From the NCBI GenBank assembly GCA_965261595.1, contig CBDHDG010000005.1, positions 128,001 through 192,000 of the forward strand: a stretch of 64,000 nucleotides of DNA, read 5' to 3'. The stretch is from a bacterium. GTDB lineage: Bacteria > UBA8248 > JACPRG01 > G963555815. This document shows positions 1-8,774 of the stretch, piece after piece. The translations under genes and the position numbers were made by a program. The notes under the pieces were generated by a model. It was not told the DNA's origin, searched no databases, and saw only the letters and a list, made by a program, of their open reading frames with translations. Numbering within the stretch: the first letter of the stretch is position 1; each line of letters opens with the position of its first letter.

Positions 1-332
1 CTTACAACAATCGGGGATTATTAGTTTCGAAAAGGCTATTCTTTCGAAGCAACGCTTGTAAGAATTTCTTTCTAATTCGCGCTACTTTATCCTAAGATCA
101 CAAGAAATGTCGTGATGGAATACAAGAAAATGAATTTCACCCAACGCGAAAACACAGGTCTCCGGTTGGGGTCCCAGGGTCAGTTCTCGACTTCATACAA
201 TTGTCAGCGCCGGGAGGATTGTCGGTATCCGTTGCCCCCGGCGCCTCGATTCATCACGTGATACCAGGCGCCCTCGTACATCATCCGGAGTGATCGGGCC
301 ATAGACACGGGCACTCATATGATTGTCTCTTG

Positions 333-473
333 TCAATACTGGACCCCAATTCCACGTCTTAGAGGCCGCGGAGAGCAGGGGAGTTTCGACGACTCGATCG
401 CCCGGGCGAATCGCGTCGCATTTTCTTCCTGGAACAGAATCGCCAGGACAGCGAACGTGTCCACCATGCTCAT
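333..473 (-). pseudogene. vapC: VapC PIN-domain toxin, frameshifted/truncated remnant
   Basis: MSMVDTFAVLAILFQEENATRFARAIE resembles a PIN N-terminus; ATGA overlap with the antitoxin stop; the LLSAAS motif continues in another frame and then homology ends. Confidence 0.7.
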
Positions 474-710
474 TTGGGCAAACCATGCTTGTCGTAAAGA
501 ATTCCTTCGGGCGTCCAGGTATCGAGCGTCGGCTGGGACGCGCAGCGCCGACCGATTTCCATCAACCACTCGGCAACGCCCGCGCGGTTCCGCCCTTGGA
601 ACTGGCGATCCAAACGTTTCTCCATCGCCTTGGTCTTGGTCTCGCCGGTCAAACGCACGAACTCCTCGGCCAAACGGCAGGTCGCTTCATTCTTGATGTT
701 CAGGCCGATT
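470..710 (-). pseudogene. vapB: VapB-type (Rv0623-like) antitoxin, start codon apparently lost
   Basis: GLNIKNEATCRLAEEFVRLTGETKT...LYDKHGLPK is the typical family pattern; ATC stands where ATG is expected. Confidence 0.7.
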
Positions 711-863
711 CCGATTCTACCATCTCCACGGCCGTTACGCCAAAACCCCGGGGCCGCGGCAAGGGGCGGCAAAAATCAACGATTAAGTCCTTTACCTTTT
801 CCGCCGAAATGTAAATGGATAAACTTTGGCATCCGTTCGTTCAGTTCGCGCGGAGAGGGCGCA

Positions 864-1349
864 ATGCCGTTTACGATCTTCATCAGTAATAGGCCGGGTG
901 ACATCGACGTCGTTCGGTTCATCGCGTCACAGCTTCAATTGGGCGGGCAAAGACCCCTCATTGCGCATGAGGACCGGCCCCTGAAAGCGGCCCGATCCCT
1001 TCCGAAAATAGTCCGCGAGCGGATTCTGGAGTCCGGGTGCGTCCTGGCGTTGATCTCGAATCAGGGGTCCCAATCGGACCTTGTTCGTCAGGAGGTCGAA
1101 TTCGCGTCCGACAAAAGGCCGATCATCCCCATCGTGCGAGGATCGGTTTCCGCGTCCGGATTGGATTTCCTGCGGGACGCGCAAATCATTCGCTTTTCAG
1201 CCCGGGAGCTCAATCCGTCTTTGGAAGGGCTGATTTCCTGGACGCCCCAAATATCCGTTAAAGGGCGGCCGACGGAAGCCCTCAGACAAATCGCCTTCCT
1301 CACCCTCGGCGCGTTGATGACCTGGCGCATGAGCGGACAACGGGGATGA
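864..1349 (+). CDS. TIR-domain protein with C-terminal hydrophobic helix
   Basis: FTIFIS box-1-like start, CVLALIS strand, SDLVRQEVEFA with conserved Glu, RPIIPIV; C-terminal IAFLTLGALMTW; GGAG upstream. Confidence 0.75.
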   Translation: MPFTIFISNRPGDIDVVRFIASQLQLGGQRPLIAHEDRPLKAARSLPKIVRERILESGCVLALISNQGSQSDLVRQEVEFASDKRPIIPIVRGSVSASGLDFLRDAQIIRFSARELNPSLEGLISWTPQISVKGRPTEALRQIAFLTLGALMTWRMSGQRG

Positions 1350-1619
1350 ACGGGGTTCCACCGCGACGGACCCACCCGAAAACCCGTCCTTTCGCGATTG
1401 GAAGAAGGGCGTTACACTAAGCGGCGGCGCTCACCCCGATTCCAATGGGACTTATATATTTGGGTTAATATTGGGCTTGACGGAGTTATCGGGCCGCCAT
1501 AACATGAAAGGCGACACGAGTAGTGTACAAGACGATTGCAAGCCGAGTGAAACGTGTTCCCTCTGGGAAACACGGCGCGTATTCACCCGTTCAGGGACAA
1601 TCTTCACCGCAAACCGACC

Positions 1620-2060
1620 ATGACCGATCCGGAAATGGAAATTCTACTCAATGATGAATCGAAGAGAATTAACGGCGACATTGTGTGGGGCGGAGACGAG
1701 GACCATTCTCCTGCCGTGCAGTTTTCGGTTGATATCGAATCAGACGACGAATTTCCTCTTGTTGCAAAAGGATGGCACAACCCAGCATCTCAAAAACTTA
1801 ATTACACGATTATTGTTCGACCGGTTGGAAGAATTTATGCACTCGACTTAGGGCAGGAGCATAGAGATTCCAAGGGAGACCGGCACAAACACTATTGGAC
1901 AGAATTGAGGCAAGCTCGGAATACGTACGTGCCAGAAGATATAACGGCCACATCTAATCAGGTAATTGATGCGTGGAATCAATTCTGCACGGAAGCGAAA
2001 CTCCAGCATGCAGGAAGCATGATCTATCCCGCCATTCCCCAGATGGTATTAGGGCTTTAG
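1620..2060 (+). CDS. Conserved hypothetical protein (DUF6978-like)
   Basis: Low-GC ORF with GRIYALDLG...HKHYW; lies directly upstream of a DUF1828-like gene; start uncertain (1554 or 1620). Confidence 0.65.
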   Translation: MTDPEMEILLNDESKRINGDIVWGGDEDHSPAVQFSVDIESDDEFPLVAKGWHNPASQKLNYTIIVRPVGRIYALDLGQEHRDSKGDRHKHYWTELRQARNTYVPEDITATSNQVIDAWNQFCTEAKLQHAGSMIYPAIPQMVLGL

Positions 2061-2062
2061 TA

Positions 2063-2829
2063 ATGGCGACTCCGTGTGAACAAATTGCCGCTAGCATGGG
2101 TGCACTTTTCGAATGCTCGCAGATCAACAGGTATACGCGCATCAGAACACCGTTTCTGTATCCAGACGGAGATGTGATTGACCTTTATTGGGATGAACAA
2201 GACGGAAACATTACCATAACCGACCTTGGGGGATCGCTTGGATGGCTTTCCATGCAAACCGCAAGCCCCAAAAGACTGCCAAACAAAGACGGCTCATTCA
2301 AGATATATGTACGAATCATGGCATTGAGCAATATCGGGGTATGCTGATGCTTCGAGTTAAGCCGGGAGATGATGTTGCGGACAAGGTTTCAAGACTTTCT
2401 CAAGCAGTAATTAGAGTGACCGATTTATGGTTTACTTTTAGGCATCGAGCGGTTCAGTCAATTACCGATGAAGTAGGGGAATTTTTGGGGGAGAAGTCGA
2501 TAAGATATGACCGAGGGGAACGGTTGCCTGGAAGATCGGGCAATATTTGGAAGGTAGATTTCCACACCCGGACAGCATCCAAGAGTTCACTTGTTAATGT
2601 GCTTTGCTCTGGAAGCAAGGCGGCCGCCCATAAGGTGACTGAGCATATCGTGACACTCTGGCACGACCTGAGCCACCTTAACCTGGGGGAAGAATCATTG
2701 CAGTTCGTTTCGCTCCTTGACGATACAGTAGATGTTTGGACGGATGAAGATATCAAATTGGTATCGGAACTCTCAGACTTATCTTATTGGAGCAGACCCG
2801 ACGAATTTGCGGAAAGATTAGTGGCCTGA
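2063..2829 (+). pseudogene. DUF1828/DUF1829-like protein, one frameshift near 2270
   Basis: IRTPFLYPDGDVIDLY...ITITDLG N-domain; C-domain GRSGNIWKVDF; the two frames join at the CCCCAAAAG run. Confidence 0.75.
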
Positions 2830-3030
2830 TTTCCTTCCTACATCTTGTGGTCAGTTAATGTGAAGGCGGGATCTACATATGGTGGCTCACTGTGTCAAGG
2901 GCATAATCACGAAAGAAATGAATGAGAAAGAACAGGATCGCCCCGAGCAAGACTTGGTATTCAGGCTAAAATTGCAAGCCAATCCGGCATTAACCCAAAT
3001 ATATAAGTCCCATTCCAATCAGGGCGGTTT

Positions 3031-4047
3031 ATGAAACTCGGCATCGACCTCGACGGCCGCATTCCCATTTCGGACATGGTGGAGATGTGCCAAGTCGCCG
3101 ACGCGGCGGGGTTCCACTCCGTCTGGGCGGACCAGCACCTGGGCTACCGGGACGCGGTCTCGACCTCCGTCGCCTTCCTCGGCGCGACGAAACACGTGCG
3201 GGTCGTCCCCACCGCCCTCAGCCCCTACGTCGCCCACCCCCTCTACTGGGCCATGGGCGTCGCCACCCTGGCCGAGTGCGCACCGGGCCGGATCGCGCTG
3301 TGCGCCGGGACGGGCAACCCGAACGTCATGGCCGAGATGGGTCTGTCGCCCAAGAAACCCCTCGCCTCCATGCGAGAGATGATCACCGCCACCCGGCGGC
3401 TCTGGGACGCCGGCCGGCAGCGCGTCGAGTTTCGCGGCGAGACGCTGAACCTTTACGGCGCTCACATCGATTTCGACCTCCCGGAGGCGAGAATTCCCAT
3501 CTACCTGGCGGCCGTGGGACCGAAGATGTATCGGCTCGCCGGGGAGGCGGCCGACGGCGTCGTCCTTTCCGCCGGGGTCTCCGCGCCTTACATTCAGTGG
3601 GTGCTGGAGCAGGTCGAAAAGGGCCGAAGGAAGCGGGACGGCGGCGGGGGGGGCGGCGCCGGGAACGGCTTCCTGGTCGCGGGGCTGATCGTGACCTCGA
3701 TCTTCGAGACGTATGAAGAGGCGCTTGCGGCCAGTCAGGCCGGTCTCGCCTACCTCCTCCGGAACCCGGCCCTCAAGGCGAGCCACGAAGTCAGCGGGGC
3801 GAAACTGGACCTGGACGCCATCAACGACGCCTTCGTTAAAGAGGACCGGGAGGCGATCCGGCGGCTCATCCCCGAGGAGGTCGTCCACGCGTACAGCGTC
3901 ACCGGAACGCCCGAGATGGCGGCGGACCGAATCACGGAGTTCATCGATGCGGGTCTCGAGGTCCCCGTCCTGGCCTTGCGCGGGACGGCGGAAGAGAGGA
4001 AAAAGGCCCTGCGGCTTTTGGCCGATGGGCTCGCATCCAACCCATAA
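3031..4047 (+). CDS. LLM-class (Mer-like) flavin/F420-dependent oxidoreductase
   Basis: AGFHSVWADQH, APGRIALCAGTG, IPIYLAAVGPKMYRLAGEAADGV. Confidence 0.9.
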   Translation: MKLGIDLDGRIPISDMVEMCQVADAAGFHSVWADQHLGYRDAVSTSVAFLGATKHVRVVPTALSPYVAHPLYWAMGVATLAECAPGRIALCAGTGNPNVMAEMGLSPKKPLASMREMITATRRLWDAGRQRVEFRGETLNLYGAHIDFDLPEARIPIYLAAVGPKMYRLAGEAADGVVLSAGVSAPYIQWVLEQVEKGRRKRDGGGGGGAGNGFLVAGLIVTSIFETYEEALAASQAGLAYLLRNPALKASHEVSGAKLDLDAINDAFVKEDREAIRRLIPEEVVHAYSVTGTPEMAADRITEFIDAGLEVPVLALRGTAEERKKALRLLADGLASNP

Positions 4048-4062
4048 GGGAGGGCGATTTTC

Positions 4063-4530
4063 ATGAGCGACGGGCACGAAAAATTCCTGGCGATGGCTAT
4101 CGAGGAGGCGCGCAAGGGACTACAGAAGGGAGAGCAGCCTTTCGGCTCGGTCATCGTCCGCAACGGGGAGGTCGTCGGCCGGGCCTACAACACCGTCAAC
4201 TCCTCCGGGGACCCGACGACCCACGCGGAAACGTCCGCCGTTCGCGACGCTTCAGCCAACCTGAAGGGTTCCGACTGGAAGGAGTGCACCCTCTACACCT
4301 CGTGCGACCCCTGCCCGATGTGCTGCGGGGCGACGCTGTTTTCCGGCATCGAGCGGCTGGTCATAGGCGCGCGCTCCGCGAAACTGGCGGAGATCCGGGG
4401 CCAATCCCCGAGGACCTACTCCGCCGAGAACCTCGCCGGGCAGATGCACATGAAGCTCGAGGTCATCCGGGGGGTTTTGCAAACCGAGGCCGAGGAGGTC
4501 CTGGCGAAATTCGACTGGTCCACATTGTAG
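4063..4530 (+). CDS. Zn-dependent nucleobase/nucleoside deaminase (CDA fold), copy 1
   Basis: PFGSVIV, DPTTHAE, PCPMC. Confidence 0.9.
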   Translation: MSDGHEKFLAMAIEEARKGLQKGEQPFGSVIVRNGEVVGRAYNTVNSSGDPTTHAETSAVRDASANLKGSDWKECTLYTSCDPCPMCCGATLFSGIERLVIGARSAKLAEIRGQSPRTYSAENLAGQMHMKLEVIRGVLQTEAEEVLAKFDWSTL

Positions 4531-4705
4531 GGTGCTGTCCGCGCTGGGAGGCGACGCTCTACAGATGGCCGTGAAAGACTTACGCGCGTCGTATCCGGGC
4601 GGGCATCTTGCCCGGCCCAAAGACTTAAGGACGCATGAGAAACATGACACCCCCTCGGATCTATCCGGTTCCAAGACATCGGGCAGCGAAGACAGGAGAA
4701 TCCCC

Positions 4706-5350
4706 ATGAGCGTCGACCACGAGAAGTTCATGGCCCTGGCCGTCGAGGAGTCGCGGGCCGGGCTCCGGGCGGGCGACCGGCCCTTCGGGTCCGTCGTCGT
4801 CCGGGACGGGGAGGTCGTCGGGCGCGCATACGCCAATCCCCGCTCGACCGGGGACCCGACGGCGCACGCGGAGGTGATGGCCATTCGCGACGCGGCGGCG
4901 AACCTGAAAAGCCTGTCCCTGAAGGGCTGCACCCTCTACACCTCGTGCGACCCCTGCCCGATGTGCTGCGGCGCCATACTCTTTTCCGGCATCGACACCC
5001 TCGTCGTAGGGGCCCGCTCCGCCGCCCTGGCGCGCATCTCCAATCGAACCCCGAGAACTTACACGGCCGAAGGCCTCAGCGAACAGATGAACATGACACT
5101 CGAGGTCATCCGGGGGATTTTGGAGACCGAGGCCAAGAAAGTCCTGGAAGAATTCGGCTGGTCCAAGGAGATAGGGTGCTGTCCGCGCAATTTATCAATG
5201 ATCGTGAAAGGCTTACGCGCGTCGTATCCGGGCGGGCAAGGGGTCAACCGACCCGCTGCCCGCCCTACCGGATATTGGAAGAGTCAGCCCGTACACGGCC
5301 CGGTAGGCCGGGCATCCTGCCCGGCGCCAACTCGCACCCCGATTCGGTAG
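4706..5350 (+). CDS. Zn-dependent deaminase, copy 2 (homology ends ~5172; ORF runs on through the repeats)
   Basis: PFGSVVV, DPTAHAE, PCPMC; AGGAG RBS; the TAG equivalent to the copy-1 stop is out of frame. Confidence 0.85.
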   Translation: MSVDHEKFMALAVEESRAGLRAGDRPFGSVVVRDGEVVGRAYANPRSTGDPTAHAEVMAIRDAAANLKSLSLKGCTLYTSCDPCPMCCGAILFSGIDTLVVGARSAALARISNRTPRTYTAEGLSEQMNMTLEVIRGILETEAKKVLEEFGWSKEIGCCPRNLSMIVKGLRASYPGGQGVNRPAARPTGYWKSQPVHGPVGRASCPAPTRTPIR

Positions 5351-5369
5351 GCCGGGCATCCTGCCCGGC
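5230..5369. repeat. Cluster of GTAG-type REP palindromes
   Basis: GTAG-GCCGGGCA-TCC-TGCCCGGC at 5303-5325 and 5347-5369; inverted GGGCGGGCA...TGCCCGCCCTAC at 5230-5268. Confidence 0.85.
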
Positions 5370-5457
5370 CCAAAGTGTAAGGGCGTATGAGAAACATGAC
5401 ACCCCTTCGGATCCACCCGGTTCCAAAACATCGACCACCGGAAACAGGAGAATCCCC

Positions 5458-5958
5458 ATGAGCGTCGACCACGAGAAGTTCATGGCCCTGGCCATCGAGG
5501 AATCCCGCGCCGCCGTCCGGAGCGGAGAGCGGCCCTTCGGGTCGGTCATCGTCCGGGACGGAGAGGTCGTGGGCCGGGGCCGCAACATCGTCAACTCCAC
5601 CGGAGACCCCACGGCCCACGCGGAGACCTCGGCCATCCGCGACGCGGCGGCCAACCTCAAGACCCCAAAATTGACCGGGTGCACCCTCTACACCTCGTGC
5701 CACCCCTGTCCCATGTGCGCCGGCGCCACGCTTTGGTCCGGGGCGGGGACCATCGTCATCGGCGCGAGCCCGGCCGCCCTCAAGCGCGAATCCGGAGCGA
5801 TTTACGACATGAACGATTACACCATCGAGCGCGTCGTCGAGCTGATCGGCCTGGACCTGGAGGTCGTCAACGGGGTGCTGGAAGAGGAAGCCGAGGCCGT
5901 CTTCCGGGAGTACAAGGACTGGGGCGACGCCTCGCCCAATGTCCTCCGGTCGGAATAG
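5458..5958 (+). CDS. Zn-dependent deaminase, copy 3
   Basis: PFGSVIV, DPTAHAE, PCPMC; AGGAG RBS. Confidence 0.9.
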   Translation: MSVDHEKFMALAIEESRAAVRSGERPFGSVIVRDGEVVGRGRNIVNSTGDPTAHAETSAIRDAAANLKTPKLTGCTLYTSCHPCPMCAGATLWSGAGTIVIGASPAALKRESGAIYDMNDYTIERVVELIGLDLEVVNGVLEEEAEAVFREYKDWGDASPNVLRSE

Positions 5959-6003
5959 CGCCTCGCCCTGCCTGTTTTGAAAACACCGCTTGTCCACCGG
6001 CCG

Positions 6004-6069
6004 GCAGGCCGGGCATCTTGCCCGGCGCCAACTCGCAACCCGATCGGTAGGCCGGGCATCCTGCCCGGC
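6004..6069. repeat. REP palindrome pair
   Basis: GCAGGCCGGGCATCTTGCCCGGC (6004-6026) and GTAGGCCGGGCATCCTGCCCGGC (6047-6069); spacer similar to that in 5303-5369. Confidence 0.85.
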
Positions 6070-6158
6070 CCAAAGACTTAAGGACGCATGAGAAACATGA
6101 CACCCACGCGGATCTATCCGGTTCCAAAACATCGGACAGCGAAGACAGGAGCATCCCC

Positions 6159-6656
6159 GTGAGCGGCGATCACGAAAAATTCATGGCCCTGGCCATTCAG
6201 GAAGCGGAGGACGGCGTGAAGGAGGGGCACCTGCCTTACGGGGGCGTCATCGTCAAGGACGGCGAGGTCCTCGGCCGGGGGAAAAGCGTCGGCATCTCCC
6301 TGAAGGATCCCACGTGCCACGCGGAGATGATGGCGATCCGGGAGGCGGCGAAGAAGATGCGCTCGGGGGACATGCGAGGCTGCGTCCTGTACGCCAACTG
6401 CGACCCCTGTCCCATGTGCGCCGGCGCCGCCATCTACTCCGGCGTCGGAACCGTCGTCATCGGCGCGGGACCCGAGGCCCTGCGGCGCTGCTCCAACGGG
6501 CGGTATGACCTGGGGGACTACACCATCGAACGGCTCGTCGGGCTGACGGGCATGAATGTGAAGGTCATCCGCGGGGTCCTGGAGGAAAGGGCCGAAGCCG
6601 TCTTCAAGGACTTCGGCGACTGGGACATCGCCGCGCCCCCCGATCCAACCGCGTGA
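6159..6656 (+). CDS. Zn-dependent deaminase, copy 4
   Basis: PYGGVIV, DPTCHAE, PCPMC; GTG start after AGGAG. Confidence 0.9.
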   Translation: MSGDHEKFMALAIQEAEDGVKEGHLPYGGVIVKDGEVLGRGKSVGISLKDPTCHAEMMAIREAAKKMRSGDMRGCVLYANCDPCPMCAGAAIYSGVGTVVIGAGPEALRRCSNGRYDLGDYTIERLVGLTGMNVKVIRGVLEERAEAVFKDFGDWDIAAPPDPTA

Positions 6657-6693
6657 TTTCCCCGTAGACTCTTCTCTTTGCGAAAACCTCGGG

Positions 6694-7370
6694 TCAGGAC
6701 GGCGGCGGTCCGGCCGGCGCGCCTTTTCGCCGAACCCAGATTTCAAAATCCGGGTCTTCGTCCGAAGCCCCCGGTCCGAGCCAGTCTCCGGGCGGAAGAG
6801 GGGCGTAGTCCCGGAAAACCCGGTCCCGCAACCGGGTCGATCCCTCTCCGGCGAGCCGTACAGGCTGAACCGTGCTCTTCCAGAAAAGCGACTTGCGGTT
6901 CACCACCAGAAAGCGGACGCGCGGCAGCCTCTCGACGATGCTCTCCTGCATCTCCGGCGTCAGCAAACCCCAGGTCGTGGCGTTATAGCGGGTGACGCTC
7001 GGCCTTCCCGTCCAGATGTAGATGCTCGACATTCCCGGCATGGTGAAAATCGGCTCGCCCGGCGCCGTGCGTCTCCGGAGATACCGGATCAGGGCCTCCA
7101 ATTTGGGGGCGATCTCCGATTGAAACCGGACCCCCGCGGCGGACGGCGCGGACAGGGGGATTCCCTTTTGGCGCTCCTTCGCCAGGGGAATCACCCCCAG
7201 GCCCAGGAACGGCAGCAGGAAGGCGAGCGTCGCCGCCGGGAACACCAGCTCGGCGATCGAGCGGGACACCGGAAGATTGAGAGGCCGCCGGTTTTTCTCG
7301 GGCAGCTTGCGTCGATCCAGCAGCGCATACGTAAGCGCGCCGGCCAGGAGGACGACGAGGGGCGTCGCAG
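6694..7370 (-). pseudogene. C-terminal part of a membrane protein (possibly GT-C-like), 5' end removed at the IS
   Basis: Two hydrophobic helices, then YLRRRTAPGEPIF...IYIWTGRP; the frame begins inside the IS end. Confidence 0.6.
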
Positions 7371-7436
7371 TCCCCCGCTCTAGGGTTTTGTTGGACACTC
7401 GATTGATCCATGATTCATGGAGAAAGGGGTGTCGCG

Positions 7437-7823
7437 ATGAACGAACAAAAGCAAGAGGGGGCTTTGGCGGAGGGCGCCCGCAGGGCGAACGGAGCCAAGG
7501 CCCCAGGGCATCGCAGTGAGCGGGGTCGGTTCTCCTGCCAGCGCAAGCGGGAGGCGGTCCTGCGTCTTTTGCGGGGCGAGAGCCTGGAGACGCTCTGCCG
7601 CGAGTTGGGCACGACAGCGGCTCGGCTTTCCGCCTGGCGCGAGGCGTTCCTTCGCGGGGGCGAGGCGGCGCTCAAAGCCCGCCCGGCGGATGAGCGGGAC
7701 GAGGAGAACGCCCGGCTCAAGGCCAAGGTGGGCGAACTCACGATGGAGGGCGAGGTCCTGCGGGAGAAGATCGACCGCCTGGAGGCCGGCCGCCCTTTAG
7801 CCGGCAGGAGGTGGAGGCGATGA
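7437..7823 (+). CDS. IS3 OrfA (HTH)
   Basis: KREAVLRLLRGES, LKAKVGEL coiled coil. Confidence 0.9.
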   Translation: MNEQKQEGALAEGARRANGAKAPGHRSERGRFSCQRKREAVLRLLRGESLETLCRELGTTAARLSAWREAFLRGGEAALKARPADERDEENARLKAKVGELTMEGEVLREKIDRLEAGRPLAGRRWRR

Positions 7824-8728
7824 GTCAGGCCCGCTTCACCTCCACGGGCAGAGCCTACGGCCTGAAGCGGGTGTGCGCCCTTTGGGGCTTGGCGCGCTCC
7901 ACGGTCTACGCGCAACGGCGGCGAGAGGCGGTCCCCGTTCATGAACGCCCCACGCCCAATAAGCGCGGCCCTGTGGGCCCGTGCACCGATGCGGAACTCC
8001 TCGGCCACATCCGGCAGGTCCTGGAGGACTCTCCCTTCCATGGCGAGGGCTGCCGCAAGGTGTGGGCGAGGCTGCGCTTCGCGGGCATCCGCACCAGCAA
8101 GGAGCGGGTGCGTCGCCTGATGCGGGAGGCGGGGCTTCAGGCCCCCCACCGGGTGGGCAAACCCCGAGGTCCCAAAGCCCACAACGGGACCATCCGCACC
8201 GAGCGGCCCGACCGAATGTGGGGCACGCACATGACGACGACGGTGACCACCGAGGAGGGGATGGCCTCGGTGTTCGTGGCGGTGGATCACTGCTCGGTGG
8301 ACTGCGTGGGGATCCATGCGGCCAAGAGCGGCAACCGCTTCGAGGCCCTGGAGCCGATCCGGCAGGGGGTCGCCGAGCGCTTCGCCGGCTTGGAGGCGGA
8401 CGTCGCCGAGGGGCTTAAAGTTCGTCACGACCACGGCCCCGCCTATCTGTCCGATGACTTTCAGCGGGAGATCGCCTACCTGGGCATGACCAGTTCGCCC
8501 AGCTTCGTGCGGGCGCCCGAGGGAAATGGCTACTGTGAGTGGTTCATCCGCATCTTGAAGGAGAATCTCCTGTGGGTGCGCTCTTTCGCCACCGTAGAGG
8601 AACTGCGGTGGGCGCTGCTTGAGTTCAAGAACCTGTACAACCATCATTGGATTCTCGAGGGCTACGGCTACCGAACGCCGGCCCAGGCAAGGCAGGAAAA
8701 ACTCGCTCAAGTTGCGGAGGCCGCATGA
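7811..8728 (+). CDS. IS3 OrfB DDE transposase (first Asp changed to His)
   Basis: WGTHMT here versus WGTDMT/WSTDMT in the other copies; RHDHG; PEGNGYCE. Confidence 0.9.
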   Translation: MEAMSQARFTSTGRAYGLKRVCALWGLARSTVYAQRRREAVPVHERPTPNKRGPVGPCTDAELLGHIRQVLEDSPFHGEGCRKVWARLRFAGIRTSKERVRRLMREAGLQAPHRVGKPRGPKAHNGTIRTERPDRMWGTHMTTTVTTEEGMASVFVAVDHCSVDCVGIHAAKSGNRFEALEPIRQGVAERFAGLEADVAEGLKVRHDHGPAYLSDDFQREIAYLGMTSSPSFVRAPEGNGYCEWFIRILKENLLWVRSFATVEELRWALLEFKNLYNHHWILEGYGYRTPAQARQEKLAQVAEAA

Positions 8729-8774
8729 GGTCGAATACCCTCACCCGAGTGTCCAATAACCCAGGGGCGGTCCA

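Follow-up and report, generated by a model that had tools for sequence, protein, structure and literature searches.

A recently inserted transposase-less cassette, probably of IS1595-like descent, that carries the PDC-M24 candidate defence gene pair

A stretch of 64,000 nucleotides from a bacterium of the UBA8248 lineage was analysed. This whole stretch (the window) corresponds to positions 128,001 to 192,000 of contig CBDHDG010000005.1 in assembly GCA_965261595.1, denoted here as C5:128001-192000 of genome G000, and coordinates given without a contig name are those of the 64-kb window. The assembly comprises 6.17 Mb in seven contigs and is rated 96.7% complete and 5.57% contaminated. The window contains a small cassette, E1, at 1447-3011. 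It is 1,565 bp long with 47.1% G+C, in a genome whose seven contigs have 62-64% G+C, and it carries the two genes PDC-M24A and PDC-M24B (M24A and M24B below). It very likely arrived by transposition. Taken as a whole, the account that we consider likely is that E1 is an IS1595-like mobile insertion cassette (MIC), which transposed into its present site and carries PDC-M24 as a candidate anti-phage module. The insertion of the cassette is observed directly. Its classification as a MIC, a non-autonomous transposon, of IS1595 descent is probable, judged from the resemblance of its ends. An anti-phage function of the PDC-M24 pair, which is a candidate only, is plausible and about evenly balanced. 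The features of the cassette are as follows.

1439-1446, no strand: left copy of the target-site duplication, 8 bp, ATTCCAAT
1447-1469, plus strand: left terminal inverted repeat, 23 bp, GGGACTTATATATTTGGGTTAAT
1620-2060, plus strand: cargo gene 1, PDC-M24A, DUF6978-like, 146 amino acids, PADLOC PDLC04533
2063-2829, plus strand: cargo gene 2, PDC-M24B, with N-terminal DUF1828, PADLOC PDLC04540, split into 2063-2347 and 2242-2829
2270-2273, plus strand: A4 run at the frame break of PDC-M24B; A5 in other public runs gives the intact gene
2837-2922, minus strand: leftover end of a different IS1595-type element, with its tip CGTGATTATGCCCTTGACACAG on the minus strand from about 2911
2989-3011, minus strand: right terminal inverted repeat, identical to the left one when reverse-complemented
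3012-3019, no strand: right copy of the target-site duplication, 8 bp, ATTCCAAT

The first-pass annotation of this DNA had described a low-GC segment of 1,565 bp between a perfect 23-bp inverted repeat and a perfect 8-bp duplication, with two coupled genes inside and no transposase. All of this was recovered. The inverted repeats of E1 match at 23 of 23 bp. Both genes lie on the plus strand and occupy most of the cassette, with 2 bp between the stop of M24A and the start of M24B, and Pfam and PF12762 searches detected no transposase domain in either of them. With up to three mismatches allowed, these are the 23-mer's only two sites in the window; 100 shuffles yielded no match at all. The leftover end at 2837-2922 matches the ends of a 1,751-bp IS1595 element at C7:638723, and copies of it occur elsewhere in G000 and in G003; no partner repeat for it was found within E1. 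A 10-bp direct repeat, ATTGCAAGCC, at 1535 and 2971 was discarded as a feature, about one such repeat being expected by chance in 1.5 kb by our own estimate.

The 23-mer was then searched in the entire genome. It is present in 11 copies, nine of them exact and two with one change, and the reversed control word gave none. No further copies appeared in G000 when five changes were allowed. Eight of the 11 copies form four inverted pairs (E1 to E4), and the other three are solo ends.

E1, C5:129447-131011: 1,565 bp, duplication ATTCCAAT
E2, C4:595167-598434: 3,268 bp, duplication TTTCAAAA
E3, C4:806085-810405: 4,321 bp, duplication ATTTTATT
E4, C5:701049-704693: 3,645 bp, duplication AAAGGGAA

A perfect 8-bp direct repeat flanks all four complete pairs. 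The seven octamers adjoining the ends have a mean of 11% G+C, against 63% for the genome. The empty site of E1 is found in the same genome. In a DNA search with window positions 1-5000, window 160-1446 aligned with C7:496149-494863 with two mismatches (99.85% identity), and window 3009-7369 corresponds to C7:494874-490513 with one mismatch and one gap (99.95% identity). On C7 the two flank blocks meet over one single ATTCCAAT, which is the empty site. The same empty junction with a single ATTCCAAT is present at 92-95% identity in the same-genus genome G001 (contig C88). The filled and empty states therefore coexist with near-identical flanks, and the insertion is recent, as the first-pass annotation had proposed from the repeats.

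Public sequencing runs were also compared. Of 24 runs listed, the contigs of four (X1, X4, X15, and X16) were examined; these are contigs and not reads, and the depths are rough. The stretch is present wholly or partly in 20 of the 24 runs, from 11 studies, and at least half of its sampled words occur in 15. Filled junctions were found in contigs of the compared runs, and X4 and X15 additionally carry the empty joint 1438->3012. In some run contigs the repeat adjoins other flanks, one of which is present at C4:378216 of G000 with no repeat beside it. Therefore, insertion sites vary between populations.

X4 and X15 also contain a variant end, with loose ends at 1475, in which the repeat and six further bases continue into GAATTATATCGCAAAG, a sequence absent from G000. 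This variant may represent a further nested end of IS1595 type, or else another member of the family. The similarity between C5 and C7 extends beyond the immediate flanks, since window 160-22000 has a second copy at C7:476291-496149 that is 99.8-99.95% identical. The two copies differ chiefly in insertion-sequence (IS) content and in the absence of the cassette on C7. They could be paralogues that arose by segmental duplication, or could come from two strains assembled together.

The link of the cassette to IS1595 was assessed with the resident elements of this family. The DDE domain PF12762 has 54 matches in G000, none of them inside E1-E4 or part of the solo ends. Of 34 IS1595 transposase loci examined, 19 have repeats on either side together with a duplication of 8 bp, in most cases at an AT-rich site; one of the 19 (C7:1274780) is doubtful, its repeat falling in IS3-family transposase sequence. 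The end GGTGATTATATACTTGACAGG of a 2,620-bp element at C7:539156-541775 shares 12 of 16 cassette-tip bases in register, and the end CGTGATTATATACTTGACAAAG of a 2,101-bp element at C6:703409-705509 shares 11 of 16, also in register. Six IS1595 elements of 1.8-3.3 kb have an open transposase gene, encoding Zn-ribbon and DDE domains, followed by passengers.

Passenger-carrying IS1595 elements (L128-L133): C7:539156-541775, C7:78878-82144, C6:1524829-1527638, C6:353820-356739, C6:703409-705509, and C5:10860-12674

Their passenger sets comprise a PIN protein with an unknown protein, a type II methylase with a type II restriction enzyme (3.3e-14), a GmrSD_N/HNH protein, PDC-S42 (1.1e-40), and two sets of unknown open reading frames (ORFs). 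The IS1595 origin suggested in the first-pass annotation is thus supported indirectly, by the 8-bp duplications at AT-rich sites, the similar ends and the passengers of the resident elements. The genome-wide search for the 23-mer that it had proposed returned cassettes with other cargo and no autonomous partner. Either the partner transposase is missing from the assembly or a resident non-cognate enzyme served.

The two cargo genes were identified with profile searches. M24A matches PADLOC PDLC04533 with an E value of 3.6e-50 over profile positions 2-146 of 151. The two parts of the split M24B match PADLOC PDLC04540, the N-terminal part over positions 1-75 of 256 (E 1.4e-32) and the C-terminal part over 69-254 of 256 (E 1.2e-71). 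The genes are adjacent and on the same strand, and with both profiles matched they constitute PDC-M24 as PADLOC defines it. The pair, a possible uncharacterised anti-phage or toxin module in the first-pass annotation, is thus a catalogued candidate. The family labels given earlier held only in part. Pfam finds DUF1828 in M24B and no DUF1829 at E up to 0.1, and the DUF6978 match of M24A (E 8.2e-05, 23.4 bits) is below the cut-off of 29.6 bits. M24A has 103 homologues, the closest non-self one being 52% identical.

M24B is interrupted in the assembly by a frame break at the A4 run, where one base is lost. An extra A behind position 2269 is present in runs X15 and X16 and absent from X4 and from X1, which is probably the source of the assembly. 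An intact allele of 255 amino acids, P0104, is in the protein collection and reads ...SPKKTAKQ... at this site. The break is a polymorphism or a long-read homopolymer error and not a property of the family, because the intact form exists in other runs and in P0104. Intact alleles of M24B circulate in related populations. Programmed frameshifting at the A-run was considered and rejected, as no recognised slippery heptamer was seen by eye and the intact A5 allele exists. Contigs of X16 cover both cargo genes, which is no proof of transcription.

In a species-genome collection, 398 of 403 candidate stretches proved to contain a relative of M24B, and these are distributed over many phyla. Among the 80 best loci, 73 have M24A immediately ahead of M24B. 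Within the phylum, seven of 51 genomes match, G000 included, and the distribution is patchy in the class. None of the six other genomes of its own family matched the M24B query. This pattern is as expected for acquired DNA. The gene neighbourhood, whose enrichment for defence genes the first-pass annotation had wished to see measured, was counted in the first 19 of the 80 best loci with at least 14 kb, taking the six nearest ORFs of at least 120 amino acids and no control set. A PADLOC match at E<=1e-10 was present among these ORFs in 11 of the 19 loci (16 of 114 proteins), and parts of type I restriction-modification (R-M) systems in eight of 19. According to the available part of bioRxiv 10.1101/2024.01.29.577857, 145 PDCs were predicted since their relatives occur inside loci for BREX, DISARM or type I R-M systems, in which they are embedded.

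The M24A/B pair also occurs in an independent cassette of another lineage. At locus L047 of genome G051 (6404-7838), the pair lies in a transposase-less cassette of 1,435 bp bounded by the repeat GGTATTGTTCGGTTCTTGCGTTGCTGA, which matches at 26 of 27 positions and differs from that of E1, and by the 8-bp duplication CGAGCCAG. A third copy of this repeat in G051 (L127, from about 1501 onward) precedes a PDC-S45-like gene for a serine-protease-like protein at a contig end. Thus, PDC-M24 and PDC-S42 are passengers in G000, and PDC-M24 and PDC-S45 are passengers in the cassette family of another lineage. A further locus, L081, has a repeat matching at 30 of 30 positions and a palindromic 8-mer.

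Structure models were obtained for both proteins. The M24B model (41 sequences, pLDDT 86.6, pTM 0.54) consists of two domains. Residues 1-128 are predicted to adopt a fold like that of type III secretion chaperones and YbjN, and residues 129-255 a PD-(D/E)xK nuclease fold, the core alpha-beta arrangement of which is present in the model. The closest structural matches were as follows, with root-mean-square deviations (rmsd) over aligned residues.

M24B 1-128 and Spa15 (1ry9): Z 10.2, 109 aligned, rmsd 2.7 Å
M24B 1-128 and 3cxj: Z 10.5, 116 aligned, rmsd 2.8 Å
M24B 129-255 and BstEII (9ibq): Z 10.8, 126 aligned, rmsd 3.1 Å
M24B 129-255 and Can2 (7bdv): Z 10.7, 119 aligned, rmsd 3.1 Å
M24B 129-255 and AF1548 (1y88): Z 10.4, 114 aligned, rmsd 3.8 Å

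Foldseek returned eight chains for M24B at E<=0.001 (1.8e-04 to 8.9e-04), all of which are nucleases of this fold or proteins containing it. The nuclease-like appearance of the C-terminal domain, which had been noticed from the translation, is therefore borne out by the predicted fold. Residues invariant among the 41 sequences include E137, D166, H168, R170, D202, and D221; E194 is nearly invariant, and position 186 is lysine or arginine. The arrangement D166...K/R186...E194 may correspond to the Cfr10I-type variant, in which the acid is supplied from a helix. A search of the M24B profile against Protein Data Bank sequences gave only a designed mini-protein at E of about 0.7. M24A was modelled with a pLDDT of 81.3 as a protein rich in beta structure; it has conserved His and Asp residues and the conserved motifs DEDH, LDLG-x-x-H, and HKH. 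A search of the ESM Atlas with M24A returned only DUF6978 clusters. Of the fold searches recommended in the first-pass annotation, the one on M24B was thus informative, with matches for both domains, and the one on M24A yielded no solved relative.

The following course of events is proposed. A DDE transposase made elsewhere would have bound the 23-bp ends and cut out or copied the cassette. The cassette would then have entered the AT-rich octamer ATTCCAAT in the leader of the monooxygenase-deaminase operon downstream, duplicating the octamer. Mobilisation in trans is what we infer from an insertion that is itself observed. As for the cargo, M24B would be a nuclease effector, whose chaperone-like N-terminal domain may bind M24A or a phage protein and may hold or steer the nuclease. 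M24A would be the partner sensing a trigger or restraining the nuclease. From the predicted fold and the gene order, this division of roles, M24B as effector and M24A as sensor or restrainer, is the most likely one.

Several results weigh against the account of an IS1595-like cassette carrying an anti-phage module. A search of G000 that tolerated up to five changes revealed no transposase between such ends; at 96.7% completeness this absence is not proof, as a plasmid or phage copy could be missing. The 23-bp ends were found in none of six other genomes of the order and, with up to three mismatches, in none of 50 other genomes of the phylum, and the exact 23-mer had no match in genome_contigs and metagenome_contigs. 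With a 17-mer, single matches were obtained at each of seven loci in viral_contigs, none of which reach the 23-mer, and at each of 30 loci in metagenome_contigs, the best being 21 of 23. These are read as chance matches, and the two most repeat-like metagenome loci (L138 and L142) have no transposase. The family assignment is one by resemblance with no cognate transposase, and the best resident IS1595 end (C7:539156) agrees at 13 of the 23 repeat bases. On the side of the cargo, M24B is frameshifted in G000, and the module is therefore probably inactive here. The nuclease domain has neither a canonical (D/E)xK motif nor an invariant lysine among the 41 sequences. No solved relative of M24A was found by Foldseek (best E 0.037) or by a wide structural search (best Z 5.4, under the noise level). 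The neighbourhood counts have no control set behind them. Repeats with an 8-bp duplication were seen in only two of 73 related loci, of which one (L047) was inspected. The PDCs are described as untested in the available part of bioRxiv 10.1101/2024.01.29.577857, and the literature searched gave no mention of the name PDC-M24.

Other explanations were weighed with this evidence. The difference between filled and empty sites could be an artefact of assembly or strain mixing, or could reflect a precise deletion; G000 is rated 5.57% contaminated, and two region copies of 99.9% identity could be two strains. However, independent public runs have contigs with the filled junctions and contigs with the empty joint, the perfect duplications of the four elements all differ, and G001 of the same genus has the empty site. 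Moreover, strain mixing alters only whether the copies are alleles or paralogues, not that an insertion occurred, and we regard this explanation as extremely improbable. With transposition accepted, it can be asked which enzyme was responsible. The cassette family might have been moved by resident non-cognate IS1595 elements, for example C7:539156-541775 and C6:703409-705509, and no cognate enzyme need have been lost. Both elements have open transposases with Zn-ribbon and DDE_Tnp_IS1595 domains, and the core TTATATAnTTG is common to their tips and to that of the cassette, with 12 and 11 of 16 bases respectively agreeing in register. The resident elements make 8-bp duplications at AT-rich sites, and no closer candidate is present in G000. 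On the other hand, their ends match just 13 of 23 repeat bases, and the repeats of the cassettes remain identical at 22-23 of 23 positions amid drifting DNA, which points to an exactly matched transposase. Its plasmid or phage copy could be missing from an assembly of this completeness, and movement by the resident enzymes is rather unlikely in our judgement. The ends could also belong to a different family altogether, their likeness to IS1595 being fortuitous. ISL3, IS256, IS6, and IS66 also make duplications of 8 bp, a length which is not unique to IS1595, and no transposase was tied to these ends anywhere searched. Nevertheless, the tip agrees with that of a verified IS1595 element of G000 at 12 of 16 bases, in register and gap-free, in a comparison that was not extended systematically to the ends of other families. 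The target preference and the duplication length are the same as those of the resident IS1595 elements, and leftover IS1595 ends sit in E1 and E3. An origin in another family is very unlikely.

For the function of the cargo, the main competitor of a dedicated anti-phage system is a selfish one. PDC-M24 could work as an addiction or toxin-antitoxin module and so stabilise the cassette, or could serve in conflicts between mobile elements. The module is small and tightly coupled, its second gene has a nuclease fold, it rides transposase-less cassettes at least twice, and M24B is already broken in G000. In addition, the "guilt by embedding" by which PDCs were predicted could partly reflect small cassettes entering AT-rich defence loci. 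These points are countered by the type I R-M parts that adjoin the pair in eight of 19 loci and by the cassette structure being present in just two of 73 related loci. Many proven defence systems are built in the same way, so that the addiction and defence readings overlap. A purely selfish role is given a low probability here, and PDC-M24 as a candidate anti-phage pair is retained as the preferred reading.

The cassette was compared with known systems. MICs such as MIC231, derived from IS231 in Bacillus cereus, are a known kind of element (described in the available part of PMC3129680, citing De Palmenaer et al. 2004). Like the cassette, they have IS inverted repeats, a target duplication, no transposase, modular passenger cargo, and presumed activation in trans. 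Unlike the cassette, MIC231 has the ends of IS231, of the IS4 family; the cassette has IS1595-like ends, no cognate IS in G000, and candidate defence cargo. Passenger-carrying IS1595 elements ("transporter ISs") are also established (the same part of PMC3129680, citing Siguier, Gagnevin and Chandler 2009). These share with the cassette the 8-bp duplication, apparently related ends and passengers, and six of them are in G000; the cassette differs in having no transposase and in its 23-bp repeat, which agrees with the resident elements at 13 of 23 bases at most. The closest precedent in cargo comes from Furuta, Abe and Kobayashi 2010 (PMC2853133), the available part of which describes R-M units that lie within inverted repeats and have a target duplication of 8 bp. 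A relative has the empty site, no transposase is linked to the units, and the authors raise transposition in trans as a possibility. The likeness to the cassette thus covers defence genes within inverted repeats, the 8-bp duplication, the empty site, and the lack of a transposase. In contrast to the Xanthomonas R-M unit, whose repeats are unique to it as far as that part of the paper goes, the cassette has cargo other than R-M genes and repeats that occur 11 times in the genome with varied cargo. PDC-M24 in PADLOC-DB 2.0.0 agrees with the cargo in that its A and B profiles are matched along their entire length, and differs in that B is frameshifted in G000. At the level of structure, Can2/Card1/Cdn1 and the nuclease domains of restriction enzymes (7bdv, 9u49, 9ibq, and 1y88) resemble residues 129-255 or so of the M24B model with Z 10.3-10.8 and rmsd 3.0-3.8 Å over 114-126 residues. 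M24B differs from them in lacking a CARF domain, its N-terminal domain being like type III secretion chaperones or YbjN instead. A canonical (D/E)xK is also absent, and at the level of sequence M24B matches none of the solved chains. Integron gene cassettes, on which an integrase acts at attC/attI sites, are similar to the cassette family of G000 in being small promoter-fed units with variable cargo and one common end module giving expression signals. The family differs from them in its DDE-type transposition, with inverted repeats and target duplication, and in the lack of an integrase.

The kind of element is already known from MICs, transporter ISs and the R-M units of 2010, and the cargo is a catalogued candidate, but the case is unusually well documented. 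It is a clean example, and one that can be dated, in which a transposase-less cassette has moved with a defence candidate as its sole cargo. One genome shows both filled and empty sites, and public runs show both intact and broken alleles of M24B. The cassette is also a natural minimal construct for the examination of PDC-M24, for which a first structural guess is now given: a chaperone-like domain and a restriction-endonuclease-like domain, with a partner of unknown fold. G000 is laden with ISs and holds at least six IS1595 elements and four cassettes with cargo, much of it defence-like. Such tiny cassettes escape flagging because they have no mobility gene inside, and defence inference based on embedding should take these mobile units into account.

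The four cassettes of G000 have common ends and differing cargo. E2 carries a 374-amino-acid lipoprotein-like protein and a 104-amino-acid protein, both without a Pfam family. E3 carries an HSDR_N protein and an N6-adenine methylase in a run of ORFs split by an IS, with an extra ORF of 153 amino acids that faintly matches a type I specificity subunit. E4 carries a ClpP-like protein and a small lipoprotein. E1 and E3 each hold one leftover end of another IS1595-type element, and no complete nested element was found within E1-E4, where only the outer pairs pass the test of repeat and duplication. Next to the repeat lies a "type-A" region, which is shared by four ends.

1470-1519, plus strand: type-A subterminal region, common to the left end of E1, the right ends of E3 and E4, and the solo end on C3
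1504-1623, plus strand: open frame of 39 codons that begins in a conserved MKGDT stretch and whose TGA overlaps the ATG of M24A (ATGA)

The 23-bp repeats are identical between ends at 22-23 of 23 positions, and the adjoining 50 bp or so are just 77-85% identical among the four type-A ends. The conservation of the repeats while the neighbouring DNA drifts is in keeping with selection by a transposase whose recognition sequence is exactly these 23 bases. In E1 the type-A homology stops at about 1519. It includes a promoter-like site, TTGACG-17-TAACAT at 1477-1505, which faces the cargo and whose two hexamers are kept in all four type-A ends (consensus TTGAC(N)-17-T(A/G)ACAT). This is the single consensus match in 1300-3100 and is not above the shuffle mean of 2.3, so its weight comes from conservation among the ends and nothing else. 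Translation of the 39-codon frame from the ATG at 1504 is doubtful because this ATG overlaps the -10 hexamer. The ends of E3 and E4 and the C3 solo end encode instead a conserved peptide of 23-28 amino acids, ...E(C/Y)LGRIA(S/P)GMFGKRLTY.... Its frame (element positions 58-144) lies between the promoter-like site and the cargo and has synonymous differences between copies; in E3 it stops 3 nt ahead of the first cargo ATG.

A wider reading of these ends can be put forward, although we hold it to be distinctly improbable. The cassettes with the 23-bp repeat would be an orphan and still active shuttle that swaps its cargo, and one end would act as an expression adaptor, whose promoter and short leader frame pass transcription, and perhaps ribosomes, to a foreign gene. 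In that case, defence genes would generally be carried by small IS1595-type cassettes and by transporter ISs. If true, the shuttle could explain PADLOC candidates found "embedded" inside other defence loci, and it would partly confound guilt by embedding.

The cassette lies directly ahead of an operon. A luciferase-like monooxygenase gene (Pfam Bac_luciferase, E 4.4e-52) begins with an ATG at 3031. The right repeat ends 19 bp short of this ATG, the distance given in the first-pass annotation, and the duplication ends 11 bp short of it. The insertion shifts the former upstream sequence 1.57 kb from the ATG, and the cassette genes and the operon are on the same strand. No terminator-like site was found on the plus strand in 1300-3100. 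Read-through from the cassette into the operon is possible because of the common strand and the lack of such a site; silencing of the operon is a possible outcome as well. The copy of the monooxygenase-deaminase operon on C7 has no insertion. In the window, the operon (3031-6656) consists of the monooxygenase gene and four tandem paralogues of dCMP_cyt_deam_1/MafB19-like deaminases, and the intergenic stretches are repeated too. On the other side of the cassette, an ORF at 630-1349 encodes a TIR-domain protein (Pfam TIR_2, E 2.4e-09) without a PADLOC match and ends 90 bp upstream of the cassette.

An IS of the IS3 family is located further downstream in the window at 7370-8774. It is about 1,405 bp long, with an HTH_Tnp_1 orfA and an rve-domain orfB, and it is present in 178 full-length copies in G000 with at least 98.9% identity, which account for about 4% of the genome. 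E2, E3, and E4 each contain one nested IS3 copy, against an expectation of 0.26 (Poisson P 0.0024); the target duplications of the nested IS3-type copies are ambiguous. E2 (C4:596777-598350) and E4 (C5:702486-704079) have about 170 bp of non-IS sequence in common beside their nested IS3 copies. The common segment is 96% identical over 1,594 bp including the IS, and the cargo on either side differs, which suggests a shared module or a preferred IS3 target.

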